NCBI GenBank assembly: GCA_016390365.1
Contig: GCA_016390365.1_3043.1
Reading direction: 5' to 3' (one strand)
DNA from: a phage
DNA length: 64,000 bases
Shown piece after piece: positions 18,253 to 25,070 of the stretch. The translations under genes and the position numbers were made by a program. The notes beneath the pieces were generated by a model, which did no database searches, was not told the origin of the DNA, and was given only the letters and a program-made list of their open reading frames with translations. Position 1 is the first letter of the stretch, and each line of letters begins with the position of its first letter.

Positions 18253-18279
18253 AGGGAGCCTTCGGGCTCCCTTTTTTTT
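18253..18279 (+). terminator. intrinsic terminator
   Basis: GGGAGCC-TTCG-GGCTCCC then T8. Confidence 0.75.
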
Positions 18280-18288
18280 ATTTCAAAA

Positions 18289-18358
18289 ATTTTTTCACAA
18301 AATTGTTTACAAGCATAAAGCTTTATGGTACTATACAACTATCAACTGATACGGATTT
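18289..18358 (+). promoter_or_regulatory. early promoter cassette, copy 3 (diverged)
   Basis: -35 GTTTAC 18305-18310, 18 nt spacer, -10 TACTAT 18329-18334; shares flanks with copy 1. Confidence 0.6.
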
Positions 18359-18368
18359 GGAGAATAAA

Positions 18369-19337
18369 ATGAAAACTGTAACTATCAATAAGGGTATTTA
18401 CTTCGGTAAAGAAATCTCTGGAACTTTTGAGCTCTTAGGCGAATGGTTCCCAGATAATGCTCCAGTAGATGCACAAGGAGATGGTAAAGTTTTTGTTGAA
18501 ATTGACGGTAAACGTCGCGGTGTTTGGGTTTACAAATCAGACATTTCATATGATGGTGTAAAAGTTGAAGAAGTTAAAGAATCGTATGAAGATATGAAAA
18601 CCCGCATTAATAAAAGATTTAATGTTATGGGAATGATGACGAATGGTATTATTAACGGAAACATTCGTTCATTAATTATCTCTGGTGCGGCAGGCATTGG
18701 TAAAACGTATTCTTTAGATAAAGCTTTAAATAAAGCAAATGATATTGGATACATTGAATATAAAAGCATTAATGGTAAAATCTCTGGTATTGGTCTTTAT
18801 GAACAGCTTTGGAATAATCGTGAAGAGAATTCTGTCCTTTTGATTGATGATGTGGATGTTTTCTCTGATATGGACATTCTTAATCTTCTGAAAGCTGCTC
18901 TGGACACCGGAGAGACCCGTAAAGTCTGCTGGAGCACTGCGTCTTCTTACTTAGAAGAAAAAGGCATTGAGCGTGAGTTTGAATTTAAAGGAACGATTGT
19001 TTTTATCACAAACGTTGACATTGACCGCGAATTAGACCGTGGTACTAAACTTGCTCCACATTTACAAGCATTAGTGTCCCGCTCAGTTTATTTGGATTTG
19101 GGTGTTCACACTAATGAAGAAATTATGGTCAGGGTTGAAGATGTTATTCTTTCAACTGACATGATGCAAAAGCGCGGTCTTTCTGATGAAGAAACTTATA
19201 AAGCATTATCATGGATGAAAGTTAATGTTAATCGTTTACGCAATGTTTCACTGCGTACTGCTCTTTATCTTGCTGACTTTATTATGACCGACAAAAACGG
19301 TTGGGAAGAAATTGCTGAGGTTACTCTTCTGAAATAA
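18369..19337 (+). CDS. AAA+ ATPase-like protein
   Basis: ATG 18369 after GGAG; Walker A GAAGIGKT, Walker B VLLIDDVD, sensor-like FITN. Confidence 0.55.
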   Translation: MKTVTINKGIYFGKEISGTFELLGEWFPDNAPVDAQGDGKVFVEIDGKRRGVWVYKSDISYDGVKVEEVKESYEDMKTRINKRFNVMGMMTNGIINGNIRSLIISGAAGIGKTYSLDKALNKANDIGYIEYKSINGKISGIGLYEQLWNNREENSVLLIDDVDVFSDMDILNLLKAALDTGETRKVCWSTASSYLEEKGIEREFEFKGTIVFITNVDIDRELDRGTKLAPHLQALVSRSVYLDLGVHTNEEIMVRVEDVILSTDMMQKRGLSDEETYKALSWMKVNVNRLRNVSLRTALYLADFIMTDKNGWEEIAEVTLLK

Positions 19338-19743: not shown

Positions 19744-19773
19744 GTTTACAAGACTGTTCCTCTGTGGTACTAT
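19744..19773 (+). promoter_or_regulatory. early promoter cassette, copy 5 (partial)
   Basis: -35 GTTTAC 19744-19749, 18 nt spacer, -10 TACTAT, followed by the cassette tail CAACTATCAACTAC. Confidence 0.55.
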
Positions 19774-19801
19774 ACAACTATCAACTACGGAGGAACACAA
19801 A

Positions 19802-20384: not shown

Positions 20385-20792
20385 ATGAAACAGTTGATAA
20401 TTAAAAGATTGAATTTATTGATATGTTGTTTATGTATAGTAATTGCATATGGTTATTACGCAATTAATGATTATATGCATTATAAAGATTATGATGTTAC
20501 TGTAGTTAATACCTTTACAGGAACTCAAGGAAAGGGGTCTAGTTTATCGTTTATTGCCGTATATGAACTAAATGACGGTTATAGATTTAGCGAATATATT
20601 TCACCGGAGATGTATTCTTCAATAGAAAAAGGTGATAATATTACTGTAAGTTTACGTCCTTTCGACGTAAAACAGACATTGTTTGATAATATTGTTTGGT
20701 TCTTTGGAATGGTATTAGTTCAATCTGTGTGTGGTGCTTATATAGTCTGTTCCATCTTATTCTGTATATTTAGTAAAATTGAAATTGAGTGA
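20385..20792 (+). CDS. membrane protein (N- and C-terminal hydrophobic helices)
   Basis: Track ORF; hydrophobic segments LLICCLCIVIAYGYY and VWFFGMVLVQSVCGAYIVCSILFCIF. Confidence 0.5.
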   Translation: MKQLIIKRLNLLICCLCIVIAYGYYAINDYMHYKDYDVTVVNTFTGTQGKGSSLSFIAVYELNDGYRFSEYISPEMYSSIEKGDNITVSLRPFDVKQTLFDNIVWFFGMVLVQSVCGAYIVCSILFCIFSKIEIE

Positions 20793-20799
20793 GGAAAAT

Positions 20800-21687
20800 A
20801 TGTCAGTAGTAATTAATAATGTCAATGCAGTAATTAAATCTTTAGTTAATAAAAAATTGAATGAATGGACTGTACTTCGTCGTGGAGAGCCAGATAAATT
20901 TTTTCATAGATTTAACCCAACTTTGGATTTGAATGTTATTGACAGAGATGTTCATGCTGAAATATTAGATAAGTTTAAAGTTGATATTGGGTTTGGATTA
21001 GATAAACATTTACAACGAACAAACGGGTCTGGAATGGGTTTATCTAATCGCATCATGAAAGCCCTTAATAAAATTGGAGCGTTGTCTCGTATTAATGCGA
21101 GTGAAATCCTTCGCAATTATAATAAAGGATATGACCTTTATGGTCGACTAATGCCGAAATTATCATTCGATCAAATGATTGCGGATTTGTGGGAAAATCA
21201 ACGACGATTATTAGCATTAGGCGCTCGATTAGCTAAAGGTCTAGATAAACAAATGATTTTTAAGACCAATAATACAGAAGACCTTAAATGCTTTAAATTT
21301 AGTATTCGTGGCGATGATTATTATATCAGAGCTCACTCTACAGATTATGTTAATATGGGGCATCATCTCTGTTTAGCTTTTGAAGTTTTAAAAGAAGCCG
21401 GAACATTAGAATATTCATCTGGTGCAAAATGCCCTATTGGTTCAAGTTGTATTTTAATTTATCGCCCGGATGAATCCAGTTCAACTAAATTGCCTACAAA
21501 ACCTGTACCAGTTCGTAGTAATGAAAAACATTCTGAGCAAATTGATTATTTTAATAAGCAAATTGAAGAGCTGAATATTTCTATTCAACAATATGATGAT
21601 GAAATTTTCAGACTATCTGGACTGAGTAGTAAAGCTAAATCTGAGCGTGAAAAGTTAATTAAAATTATCGATTTACTTAAATCTTAA
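20800..21687 (+). CDS. paralog-array protein 1 (C-terminal coiled coil)
   Basis: ATG 20800 after GAGGAAA; internal RLLALGARLAKG motif. Confidence 0.5.
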   Translation: MSVVINNVNAVIKSLVNKKLNEWTVLRRGEPDKFFHRFNPTLDLNVIDRDVHAEILDKFKVDIGFGLDKHLQRTNGSGMGLSNRIMKALNKIGALSRINASEILRNYNKGYDLYGRLMPKLSFDQMIADLWENQRRLLALGARLAKGLDKQMIFKTNNTEDLKCFKFSIRGDDYYIRAHSTDYVNMGHHLCLAFEVLKEAGTLEYSSGAKCPIGSSCILIYRPDESSSTKLPTKPVPVRSNEKHSEQIDYFNKQIEELNISIQQYDDEIFRLSGLSSKAKSEREKLIKIIDLLKS

Positions 21688-21695
21688 GGAACACC

Positions 21696-22718
21696 ATGAA
21701 AACTCGTTCTCAAATTGAAGATATGGTTCGTAATGCCAGCTATACTCGTGATGCTATGACATTTTTGTGCGAAAATAATTTAGACCTTGGTAAAGTTAAT
21801 TGTTCCATTCACGCCTTTAAACATCTGAACAGCAGTGAATGGGTGCGTAATTTTAATGAAGCTGGGTATATTACTCAAATGACTGCTCGTGAACAGCTCA
21901 CCGATTTCTGTAAAACTATTGATTATAAAAATCCTCTATTTGTTCAAGGTGTTGGTCAGAGTAAGGTCGATTTATCATCTGGATTTTTTAATCCAAATCA
22001 TTATCGTCTTGAATGGAGATTTATTGCTCTATTCCGTAAACAATTAAAGCAAATTTTGTCGACGGCTAGTCGATTAAAAGGCTCTGATATTAACTTAAAG
22101 AATCTGAAATTTGATGGTTATACTCTTCAGATGGAAGTAAGACCGTTAAAAGAAAATAATAGAACTGCACGAATTAGCTTTAAGCCTAATACTAAAAATT
22201 CTCTTTCAATTTGTGAATGCCTTAAATCACAGTTGACAGAAGCATTTAAGTATATGGATGTAGTTGCCGTGGTTCAGTCTAAGATTTTACCTCATTTTGA
22301 GCGAAATTGGGAACATACAACAACGTATGAACTTGATATGATCGTTTCATTTAAATACGATTTTTTGAGAAAGGACGAAGTCCCGCAAGAGAAAAAGCAG
22401 GAAGTGCAAGATATCTTAAATTTATCCAATTACTCATCAAATGATCCTAAATTTTGGATGTATAGTTCAGGTAATAAAGATACATGGAAATTCAATAAAG
22501 TGAATTTTCTTCCTATTGAAAATCCGAGTCTTAAACCTGTTGAAAAATGGCACGCGGATGCGATTGAGAAGTCCCTTAAGGCAGTAGATGATGAACTCGT
22601 TAAAGCGACCAATGAAGTGTTAGAAGCTGAAAAGATGCTAGAAAAAGCACAAGAAAAAGTCAAAAATCTCACGAAGCAACGTTCTAAACTGAACAATGCA
22701 TTAAATGCACTGAACTAG
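21696..22718 (+). CDS. paralog-array protein 2 (C-terminal coiled coil)
   Basis: Internal FRKQLKQILSTASRLKG motif; C-terminal heptads. Confidence 0.55.
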   Translation: MKTRSQIEDMVRNASYTRDAMTFLCENNLDLGKVNCSIHAFKHLNSSEWVRNFNEAGYITQMTAREQLTDFCKTIDYKNPLFVQGVGQSKVDLSSGFFNPNHYRLEWRFIALFRKQLKQILSTASRLKGSDINLKNLKFDGYTLQMEVRPLKENNRTARISFKPNTKNSLSICECLKSQLTEAFKYMDVVAVVQSKILPHFERNWEHTTTYELDMIVSFKYDFLRKDEVPQEKKQEVQDILNLSNYSSNDPKFWMYSSGNKDTWKFNKVNFLPIENPSLKPVEKWHADAIEKSLKAVDDELVKATNEVLEAEKMLEKAQEKVKNLTKQRSKLNNALNALN

Positions 22719-22747
22719 TTTACTTTACCACAAGGATGTGGTATAAT
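22718..22747 (+). promoter_or_regulatory. early promoter
   Basis: -35 GTTTAC 22718-22723, 18 nt spacer, extended -10 TGTGGTATAAT. Confidence 0.55.
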
Positions 22748-22775
22748 GTTCTTACTTTCTACTGAGGAGATTATT

Positions 22776-23777
22776 ATGACTCGTAACGAATATATCAAAT
22801 CATTCAATAGCGTTATTGATGATAAAGCTATACCGATGTTTGGTCAAAATATCGTTCTTTCTATTATCAATCAATGGCTCAATAGTGTTGATGCAAGTAT
22901 TGTTTCTTCTACTAAATTTATTCATGAAATTCGTAAAATTTCTAGCCGTGTAGATAAAGATGTTATCAAGAAAACCTTTAAAGAGTCTCGTCTTCTTTCA
23001 TATTTGGTTAATCGGGATATTCTTGGTAATTTTGGGAAAGAAATTAAACGAACTAAAGATGTAGTAGGATATAATTGGTTCGGTGATGTTAATTCTTATC
23101 ATCTCAATAATAAAGAAGACCCTGAGAATATTTTTACTCGTCGTTGGATTAGTAATTTCAGACTTTTCAAGAAGCAAATTCTAAAATCAGCTTCTAAATT
23201 ATGTTATGGCGATTATCGTCAAATTCATCCTTTGGCTTCTGATATGATTATCATAAAAGAATATGAACTTGATAAAAATAAAGTAGCTATTTTTGTGAAT
23301 TATGGATTTTTTACACCAGAAACTAACCAAAAGAACATTAATAAATTTTTCTCAATTGCTAGCACTATAACTCGTCAATTAGAGACCGCATTACTTTGTA
23401 TGGAAACAGTAGAAAATATTCATACATATCCTTTTAAGAATATATGCGGTTGGGAAGGATATAAAATTGTAGTTAGTCTTCGTGAAGTGAAATGTACTTA
23501 TTCACCTACTAGTAAAGAAATTTACCAACAAAAATGTGATGAAATTGTGAATACTCCTAAAGAAGAAACTACCCTTGAGGAACTAATGGAATGTCTTGAT
23601 GATTCACCTGAACCGGTAGAAATTCGTCCAGAAGTTATTGCACTAGAAAAAGCTTATAAAGAAGTTCTAGAAATTTCTAATAAAGCGCAGAAAGAATATG
23701 AGCAGGCTAAAAGGATTTGGGAAGAATCTGTTAATCGCCTGGATCGTCTTGAACAAGCTTTACAGTTAATTAAGTAA
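22776..23777 (+). CDS. paralog-array protein 3 (C-terminal coiled coil)
   Basis: ATG 22776 after GAGGAG (track start 22746 lies inside the promoter -10); internal FKKQILKSASKL motif. Confidence 0.55.
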   Translation: MTRNEYIKSFNSVIDDKAIPMFGQNIVLSIINQWLNSVDASIVSSTKFIHEIRKISSRVDKDVIKKTFKESRLLSYLVNRDILGNFGKEIKRTKDVVGYNWFGDVNSYHLNNKEDPENIFTRRWISNFRLFKKQILKSASKLCYGDYRQIHPLASDMIIIKEYELDKNKVAIFVNYGFFTPETNQKNINKFFSIASTITRQLETALLCMETVENIHTYPFKNICGWEGYKIVVSLREVKCTYSPTSKEIYQQKCDEIVNTPKEETTLEELMECLDDSPEPVEIRPEVIALEKAYKEVLEISNKAQKEYEQAKRIWEESVNRLDRLEQALQLIK

Positions 23778-23829
23778 TTTAAAGCCAAGGATGGCTCGGA
23801 GTATAAATCATTAACCAAGTGAGAAGAAC

Positions 23830-24759
23830 ATGAAAACTCGTAAACATTATATTGATTATTTTGACAGTCTTATTACTAAACATCGTAATTATCAGATAGG
23901 GCACAGAGCAGTAATCAATAATATTCTTCGTGATTTCCTTCAATATGTTGGCCAGGAAAATCATATCTGTAAAGATACTCAAAACGCTTATTCTCATTCG
24001 TTAGGCAATTTGCTTGAATGGTTTAAACGTTCTCGTATGTTATCTTCTACTGTAGCTCGCGATAACATTAAAAACTTTATGAAGCCGAGCTTCATTAAAT
24101 CTGAGACATCTATAACCGATTTGGTTGAATTTACTATTGTTAACGATGTTAAAAAGACTCATTTGGCTGATTGGTTATCTACCATTCCCGAAACTAAATT
24201 TGCTGATAAATTCGCTTGTCAATTCAATGACCAAGTGAATATGCTTTTTAAGCATGCTCGTAAACTATTTACCGCGGGCGATGACCGTACAAATACAGTT
24301 CATGTTAAGGATTGGGTTATTGCTGATGAAGTAACACACAAGCCAGGTGGTTCATCAGTATTAATTAATATCCAGGTTCCTTATTATTACTCACGTAATC
24401 TCGGCACCATGACAGCTAGAGAAATTAATAAGCACAACAAAATTATTCGTTCGTTGTCTTATAAACTCTGCACGATGGTGGAGATGATGGACGTAGTGGA
24501 AATGTATGACGAAACCGAAGATAATGGTTCAATGCTGTACAGTTCACGCATTCTAATTAAACTGAAGAACCCTAATACATATAAGCAAGTTGTAAAAGAA
24601 CCTAAAGCAGAAAAGGCTGATAATCTGAGTGAAGAACGCGAATATCTCAATGCTCGTTTGATTGAAGTTGAAGCCCAAATTGCAGAACACACCAAATTGT
24701 TAAAAGCTCTTAATGCAAAAGCAAATGGTTTACGTAATGCTATTGAGGTATTGAAATGA
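23830..24759 (+). CDS. paralog-array protein 4 (C-terminal coiled coil)
   Basis: N-terminus MKTRK like protein 2 (MKTRS); C-terminal heptads. Confidence 0.55.
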   Translation: MKTRKHYIDYFDSLITKHRNYQIGHRAVINNILRDFLQYVGQENHICKDTQNAYSHSLGNLLEWFKRSRMLSSTVARDNIKNFMKPSFIKSETSITDLVEFTIVNDVKKTHLADWLSTIPETKFADKFACQFNDQVNMLFKHARKLFTAGDDRTNTVHVKDWVIADEVTHKPGGSSVLINIQVPYYYSRNLGTMTAREINKHNKIIRSLSYKLCTMVEMMDVVEMYDETEDNGSMLYSSRILIKLKNPNTYKQVVKEPKAEKADNLSEEREYLNARLIEVEAQIAEHTKLLKALNAKANGLRNAIEVLK

Positions 24760-25070
24760 AAAAGCGTCTATTAGAAGACATTGCAGCTTCAAGTAATTCC
24801 AGTTTAATTAAAATTATTATGGCCGGTGAAGAAGACGATTTGGAAATGCGTGGAAAGATTCATGGTTGTGATGATTATAGCAGCCCTATTAATTGGGATT
24901 CTGTAATGGTCATGGTTGAACGCCGCGAACGTGCTTCTAAAAACGTTCCTAATTGCCCTGAATGTGGAACTGAACAGGTGCAATTGGTCCATTGGCAGAC
25001 TAGTAATCTTCGTTATAAATGTCGCCATTGTAAACACCGATTTGACCGAGAAGAAAATGACAAAGCGTAA
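24756..25070 (+). CDS. zinc-ribbon protein
   Basis: CPECG...18 aa...CRHCKH pattern. Confidence 0.5.

Follow-up and report, generated by a model that had tools for sequence, protein, structure and literature searches.

This analysis concerns four tandem genes, nrdC.6, nrdC.5, nrdC.4 and nrdC.3, in a stretch of phage DNA 64,000 nucleotides long (the window; NCBI GenBank assembly GCA_016390365.1, contig GCA_016390365.1_3043.1). We show that the four genes form one superfamily. The window belongs to the genus Tequatrovirus (T4-like phages) and is reversed in orientation relative to the standard T4 map; 658 phage records match the region 20700-24800, the top match being phage ES12 (98%). An earlier note, made from the letters of the window and a list of its open reading frames (ORFs), had described the array as four diverged paralogs with a common mid-protein motif and a C-terminal coiled coil, and its coordinates, its protein lengths of 295-340 amino acids, its two MKTR starts and the C-terminal sequences it quoted are all correct. 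All four ORFs are preceded by Shine-Dalgarno-like sequences; nrdC.5 and nrdC.3 start with MKTR and nrdC.4 with MTR.

Existing family resources treat the genes separately (Table 1). The nrdC.5 product matches the Pfam model PF23882 over its full length (415 bits against a cut-off of 30, E 2.5e-124, profile positions 1-307 of 307), and the products of nrdC.3, nrdC.4 and nrdC.6 have no match to that model. PHROGs divides the array into three families, phrog_2257 (nrdC.6), phrog_2351 (nrdC.5) and phrog_1435 (nrdC.4 and nrdC.3), the last of which is matched at full length by both of its members (E 4.6e-168 for nrdC.4 and 9.6e-116 for nrdC.3). Newer Pfam identifiers are precomputed for relatives of nrdC.6 (PF26899) and nrdC.4 (PF26897). 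Beyond these, searches of Pfam, NCBIfam, PADLOC and PDB sequences returned only the proteins' own DUF and coiled-coil noise (Smc, BrxC and PgrA tails).

Table 1. Positions in the window of the array genes, of the features their products share and of other elements nearby.
Feature	Position	Strand	Description
nrdC.6 orthologue	20800-21687	+	295 amino acids; phrog_2257 (E 4.9e-153); mapped to T4/Shfl2 annotation
nrdC.5 orthologue	21696-22718	+	340 amino acids; Pfam DUF7235 (PF23882), phrog_2351; ~91% identity to T4 NrdC.5
nrdC.4 orthologue	22776-23777	+	333 amino acids; phrog_1435; mapped to T4/Shfl2 annotation
nrdC.3 orthologue	23830-24759	+	309 amino acids; phrog_1435; mapped to T4/Shfl2 annotation
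Motif 1, nrdC.6	21079-21126	+	ALSRINASEILRNYNK; aligned columns
Motif 1, nrdC.5	21867-21914	+	aligned columns
Motif 1, nrdC.4	22992-23039	+	aligned columns
Motif 1, nrdC.3	24037-24084	+	aligned columns
Motif 2, nrdC.6	21175-21240	+	motif of the earlier note
Motif 2, nrdC.5	22014-22082	+	WRFIALFRKQLKQILSTASRLKG
Motif 2, nrdC.4	23139-23210	+	
Motif 2, nrdC.3	24205-24279	+	
Motif 3, nrdC.6	21364-21402	+	
Motif 3, nrdC.5	22230-22268	+	QLTEAFKYMDVVA
Motif 3, nrdC.4	23376-23414	+	
Motif 3, nrdC.3	24463-24501	+	
C-terminal heptad helix, nrdC.6	21523-21684	+	heptad test
C-terminal heptad helix, nrdC.5	22539-22715	+	heptad test
C-terminal heptad helix, nrdC.4	23628-23774	+	heptad test
C-terminal heptad helix, nrdC.3	24631-24756	+	heptad test
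Promoter-like site 5' of nrdC.4	22719-22747	+	T4 early type: GTTTACT, 17 nucleotides, extended -10 TGgTATAAT; consensus match only
nrdC.10	18303-19337		AAA-type ATPase
nrdC.2	24756-25070		C-terminal zinc-ribbon-like CxxC...CxxC
Repeated element, 5' of nrdC.10	18305-18347		43 nucleotides
Repeated element, 5' of nrdC.8	19744-19786		43 nucleotides
Hairpin between nrdC.11 and nrdC.10	18253-18272		terminator-like; followed by a T run

nrdC.3 to nrdC.6 form one superfamily

Kinship within the array emerges from profiles more than from single sequences. BLASTP connects nrdC.4 and nrdC.3 (E 1.6e-7, 24% identity over 270 amino acids), and the other five of the six pairs are not significant. A word-indexed search with NrdC.5 alone returned only relatives above 80% identity; queries made from alignments reached further, and among the matches listed for them the nrdC.3 and Tequatrovirus nrdC.4 clusters were missing. 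Family profiles, built from orthologues of four genera and from large protein collections, were compared using hhalign. The nrdC.4 and nrdC.3 families match with a probability of 98% (E 8.5e-14), nrdC.5 matches nrdC.4 at P 8e-4 and nrdC.3 at P 0.0025, and nrdC.6 matches the other three at P 0.009-0.07, a weak signal in the absence of intermediate sequences. Controls, in which each array family was compared with nrdC.10 or nrdC.11, gave P 0.11-0.76, and every alignment other than the controls was collinear. When the tails were removed, the N-domains of nrdC.5 and nrdC.4 still matched with a z of 8.4, a score that none of 60 column shuffles reached; nrdC.6 was marginal in this comparison and, against nrdC.3, no better than the shuffles.

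Intermediate sequences come from distant phage proteins. An exhaustive HMMER search of 1.84 billion proteins with a four-family profile returned a superfamily of 35 representatives at E <= 0.001. One remote protein, P0222, matches each of the four family profiles with the tails cut off (E 2e-7 to 3e-4); P0219 and P0220 bridge nrdC.6 (~1e-15) and nrdC.5 (1e-8 to 1e-12), and P0215 matches nrdC.5, nrdC.4 and nrdC.3. We also built a profile from 13 remote proteins, none of them from the four families, and searched it against the 148 ORF segments of the window. It found exactly the four array ORFs, with or without the tail: nrdC.5 (E 1.4e-21 at full length, 2.9e-13 with the tail removed), nrdC.4 (1.3e-13 and 4.8e-12), nrdC.6 (3.2e-11 and 2.8e-7) and nrdC.3 (4.9e-6 and 1.2e-5), the next best ORF scoring 0.086 and 0.44.

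The proteins also share a layout. The N-terminus is helical, the α/β core contains three collinear motifs, and a disordered linker leads to a C-terminal helix with heptad periodicity. The four-family alignment contains the three motifs, a conserved proline that precedes the tail, a common terminal motif and near-invariant L, A, P, L and K columns; across it there is no conserved polar residue of catalytic type. Motif 2 is the one the earlier note had proposed. It is real and shared, but was over-specified, since as written, R(L/F)xxxQ(I/L)LxxAS(R/K)L, it fits nrdC.4 alone, and with its second residue freed nrdC.5 and nrdC.4; nrdC.6 and nrdC.3 carry the degenerate forms QRRLLALGARL and QVNMLFKHARKL.

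AlphaFold2 (AF2) models of NrdC.5 and NrdC.6 have mean predicted local distance difference test (pLDDT) scores of 71.5 and 73.8. In both, N-terminal helices are followed by a small hairpin, a helix pair bearing motif 2, a β-hairpin, a helix and a second β-hairpin, and then by the disordered linker and a long helix. Secondary structure agrees at 70% of positions over the sequence alignment, against 43 +/- 5% for a circular-shift null. The fold comparison covers these two models and proceeds through alignment and shared neighbours, not superposition: BFVD has no usable nrdC.3, nrdC.4 or nrdC.5 entries, and the structural link was judged by distant neighbours in common. Searched against BFVD, both models retrieve the same three uncharacterised proteins at a probability of 1.00, from Enterobacter phage IME523, Acinetobacter phage fHyAci03 and Pectobacterium phage PM2. 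The NrdC.5 model also matches two further BFVD entries with consecutive UniProt accessions, E5EYP0 (E 6.8e-4) and E5EYP1 (E 2.2e-3), a hint that another phage may encode this fold twice in tandem.

The tails are heptad-periodic beyond shuffled sequences (p <= 0.006 for three of them, ~0.035 for nrdC.3), and AF2 places long helices there, at residues 282-339 of NrdC.5 and at 242-271 and 277-294 of NrdC.6. The C-terminal coiled coil that the earlier note had seen in each protein is supported, and the predicted helix probably does form one. In most of the 23 full-length superfamily representatives, the last ~14 residues carry a terminal motif, (Q/E)RxKLxxA(I/L)xxLK, which is kept even in the most remote ones; its least regular forms are those of nrdC.4 (RLDRLEQALQLIK) and nrdC.3. 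The last 17 residues of NrdC.5 are invariant among 52 Tequatrovirus sequences. Conservation of this kind suggests a role for the tail end beyond generic oligomerisation.

Could the four genes nevertheless be unrelated, their common features being due to convergent coiled-coil composition and chance short motifs? The silent BLASTP pairs would be expected under such a view, as would the borderline hhalign values of nrdC.6 and its shuffle-level match to nrdC.3. Composition of the tails, however, does not explain the tail-less match between the nrdC.5 and nrdC.4 N-domains, nor why a tail-less profile of remote proteins singles out these four ORFs; moreover, three motifs align collinearly in all families, the two AF2 models share their order of secondary structure and retrieve the same distant proteins, and the genes occupy a syntenic locus at which copy number varies among genera. 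We regard independent origins as very improbable and already largely refuted. Thus nrdC.3-nrdC.6 are very diverged paralogs, members of one small, Straboviridae-restricted superfamily expanded at a fixed locus; nrdC.6 has diverged furthest within the array, and nrdC.4 is the closest paralog of nrdC.3. The tandem paralogs of the earlier note are confirmed in this way by profile and structure-based tests, as all-against-all BLASTP alone joins just one pair.

Copy number, divergence and genomic setting

The syntenic locus holds one copy in Kanagawavirus (IME523) and Jiaodavirus (JD18), three in Mosigvirus and Dhakavirus and four in Tequatrovirus; Gaprivervirus (SP18) also has three, with an nrdC.5-like gene split in two ORFs (L003 6956-7860). 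In IME523 and JD18, the genes of 256-262 amino acids that lie 5' of the single copy were considered and are not family members. Among these T-even relatives the array diverges faster than its conserved flanks. At the amino-acid level, the window is ~22% identical to Mosigvirus or Dhakavirus in nrdC.5, 31-45% in nrdC.6 and 44% in nrdC.4, compared with 69-99% in nrdC.11, nrdC.10, nrdC.8, nrdC.1, nrdC and gene 49. The exception in the array is nrdC.3, at 84.5% (Mosigvirus only, HX01). Two small neighbours have values of 33% (nrdC.9, Mosigvirus) and 47% (nrdC.2, Dhakavirus).

Within the genus, gene-wide ratios of non-synonymous to synonymous substitution (dN/dS) are 0.11-0.32, indicative of purifying selection, which is mostly stricter still in the conserved flanks (~0 to 0.15). 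The earlier note called the family rapidly diversifying; that description is therefore valid between genera and for allele exchange, but not in the sense of demonstrated positive selection. Variation of NrdC.5 within the genus falls in the linker, in an N-terminal helical region at residues 10-57 and in a hairpin tip at residues 191-207, whereas neither core nor tail end varies. nrdC.3 occurs as discrete alleles, with records falling into identity classes of >=90%, ~75% and ~60%; the window copy is 60% identical to that of T4 (synonymous divergence dS 0.96) and 84.5% to that of Mosigvirus HX01, suggesting, as far as sequence comparison goes, that an nrdC.3 allele was exchanged between genera.

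Several rearranged forms were encountered. One is a natural nrdC.5(146-272)::nrdC.3 fusion in which nrdC.4 is deleted; another, on an 803-bp contig, has an unrelated N-terminus fused to the NrdC.5 tail; and nrdC.6 of phage Sf25 has an internal duplication of 83 amino acids. Some of these rearrangements (proteins P0056, P0086 and P0158, and the SP18 split) are possibly assembly artefacts. In the T4 reference (NC_000866, 10008-10894), nrdC.6 has a frameshift near codon 258 that puts a conserved tail of 37 residues out of frame, and the annotated protein has 275 amino acids with an unrelated end; the window copy is intact. In our scheme, tandem duplication of one ancestral Straboviridae-specific gene would have given rise to nrdC.6, nrdC.5, nrdC.4 and nrdC.3, and fast divergence between genera, allele swapping, fusion, split and frameshift would together resemble the pattern of an arms race.

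The array lies between nrdC.11, nrdC.10, nrdC.9, nrdC.8 and nrdC.7 upstream and nrdC.2, nrdC.1, nrdC, gene 49 and nrdD downstream. nrdC.10 has weak profile matches to AAA_14 (E 6.5e-5) and nSTAND3 (E 5e-4) and, in contrast to the adjoining array, is 78% identical between genera. The start of nrdC.2 overlaps the nrdC.3 stop codon, and its product matches several zinc-ribbon profiles (E 1e-4 to 1e-3). The early promoter that the earlier note placed inside the array is present as a consensus site; promoter-like sites across the array region number 35, against 31 +/- 4.9 in shuffles, which is no excess. The two copies of the 43-nucleotide element (GTTTACAAG...TGGTACTATACAACTATCAACT) are 81% identical, resemble the site 5' of nrdC.4 and look like a T4 early promoter plus a conserved downstream stretch. 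The hairpin upstream of nrdC.10, AGGGAGCC TTCG GGCTCCCT, is strong. A search for DNA repeats found no DNA-level similarity among the paralogs, the one exception being the MKTR starts of nrdC.5 and nrdC.3, where 17 of 19 bases agree.

Anti-defence function and alternatives

T4 nrdC.5 overcomes the defence protein Dsr1 (Srikant, Guegler and Laub, eLife 2022; PMC9391042). An evolved T4 without nrdC.5 fails to grow both on ECOR17 and on MG1655 into which the ECOR17 dsr1 has been placed, plasmid-expressed nrdC.5 alone restores growth on Dsr1 cells, and T4 clones with a deletion spanning nrdC.5 still form plaques on MG1655 (PMC9391042), which bears out the earlier note's placement of the array in a non-essential region. 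Dsr1 joins a SIR2 effector to a TPR sensor, and the sensor is reported to recognise the phage major capsid protein (2026 preprint, PMC12803255). The window gene is the orthologue of T4 nrdC.5, being ~91% identical, in the same position and covered over its full length by DUF7235; the ~9% of residues that differ cluster in the N-terminal helices, the hairpin tip and the linker, and the anti-Dsr1 activity is known from the T4 allele. The statement that no function can be assigned is thus outdated, and the accompanying guess at anti-defence genes was right for at least nrdC.5. The observation made in the earlier note is confirmed, and its interpretation partly supported. Literature searches for nrdC.3, nrdC.4 and nrdC.6, their spelling variants and DUF7235 found no functional work on them and no statement of the kinship of nrdC.3, nrdC.4 or nrdC.6 to nrdC.5; the paper on T4 NrdC.5 (PMC9391042) describes no mechanism and does not mention that kinship.

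We consider it reasonably probable that the array encodes a panel of proteins that have diversified, carry coiled-coil tails and inhibit host immune sensors by non-enzymatic means. Because they are paralogs of nrdC.5, which blocks Dsr1, nrdC.3, nrdC.4 and nrdC.6 are anti-defence candidates, and because conserved polar residues of catalytic type and matches to enzyme families are both absent, we infer that the proteins are non-enzymatic binders. We propose that they are early proteins which the phage can do without on laboratory hosts, and that each, with its variable helical N-terminus, conserved α/β core, disordered linker and tail ending in the superfamily-wide motif, would be loaded on a host immune sensor ahead of a late-expressed trigger, in the Dsr1 case the major capsid protein as reported. 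The tail may provide oligomerisation or common docking, and the diverged paralogs may block different defence proteins or variants thereof. The N-terminal helices and the hairpin tip are candidate specificity surfaces, judging from where the sequences vary.

Several points weigh against this reading. Dsr1 binding, oligomerisation through the tail and any function of nrdC.3, nrdC.4 or nrdC.6 are things we infer, and the specificity of the window NrdC.5 could differ from that of T4 NrdC.5, given the differing residues. The within-genus dN/dS values give no evidence of positive selection. The place of nrdC.6 in the family is weakly supported by direct profile comparison, and the test with remote proteins is partly circular, its members having been recruited with the four-family profile, although single-sequence links, such as that of P0222, mitigate this circularity. 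The AF2 models are of moderate confidence, and PDB searches found no solved structure of any member.

The closest functional analogy to the proposed mechanism is DSAD1 of SPbeta. Like NrdC.5, it is a phage protein that neutralises a SIR2-domain NADase defence, and it is reported to do so by direct binding, its target being DSR2, not Dsr1. PDB sequence and fold searches returned no protein like DSAD1 (DSAD1 itself was not compared directly), and we found no mention of a paralog array or a coiled-coil tail for it. Nearer by, nrdC.1 inhibits Septu and gp49.2 inhibits OLD; with pin, a Lon inhibitor, they lie in the same early, non-essential segment, from gene 49 to nrdC.11. nrdC.1 and gp49.2 have host-range phenotypes specific to one defence system. 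All three are small, unrelated in sequence and outside the superfamily as defined by the remote-only profile.

Host-modifying functions such as pin also prompt the thought that these early genes are host-takeover factors unrelated to immunity, binding for example a housekeeping machine, with the effect on Dsr1 being indirect. A C-terminal motif invariant across paralogs and genera would be compatible with a single conserved partner common to all members. However, nrdC.5 supplied alone from a plasmid rescues phage specifically on cells carrying Dsr1, its deletion has no reported cost on MG1655, and the extreme divergence between genera is ill-suited to a conserved housekeeping target, at least for the variable parts; we think takeover of this kind unlikely. 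A different label, thioredoxin-like or nucleotide-metabolism proteins, is attached to orthologues in many GenBank records, and nrdC and nrdD do adjoin the array. We give this next to no credence: there is no match to thioredoxin or to another Pfam or NCBIfam family, AF2 predicts a fold other than that of thioredoxin, and the absence of the domain and of a CxxC motif in all four proteins refutes the identity. The 'thioredoxin' label appears to have been carried over from the gene name nrdC.

A more specific version of the sensor-inhibitor reading is suggested by Foldseek, which, with the NrdC.5 model, lists tail-completion and tail-terminator proteins in BFVD (E 0.016-0.09). On this basis the proteins might be decoys derived from virion proteins, whose tail-terminator-like core is made early and occupies sensors of conserved virion proteins. 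Diversified cores would each plug a different sensor (Dsr1, Avs7-type TPR or others) before the late proteins appear, and the tail end would serve all of them for oligomerisation or docking. There is precedent for sensing of this sort: the tail tube protein is reported to be sensed by DSR2, and the major capsid protein by Dsr1 and Avs7. The NrdC.6 model, by contrast, retrieves no tail protein, the reported Dsr1 trigger is a capsid and not a tail protein, and the models are of moderate confidence. The resemblance to terminators is at the level of fold only, and common α/β folds score almost equally. Tail terminators (lambda gpU, T5 p142 and the P74-26 terminator) are 3-14% identical to the array proteins with no profile matches, and no tail family in Pfam or PHROG matches the latter; unlike them, the array proteins carry an extra helical N-terminus and a long C-terminal helix, and their genes are early and dispensable. 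Derivation of the scaffold from a virion protein, or mimicry of one, is a possibility raised by the models, and the decoy mechanism as such seems to us improbable. A role in the virion itself was rejected, as the genes lie in an early region (nrdC.10 to nrdC) with an early-type promoter and nrdC.5 is dispensable for plaques.

Kinship with nrdC.5 makes nrdC.3, nrdC.4 and nrdC.6 of T4, the reference phage, three concrete, testable anti-defence candidates, and the widespread 'thioredoxin' annotation of the array genes is corrected. The boundaries between the variable N-terminus, the invariant core and the invariant tail end may guide mutagenesis and co-structures on how Dsr1-type sensors are blocked. 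More generally, the locus would be an example of an inhibitor scaffold that has grown in place from a single copy to four, with exchange of alleles between genera.

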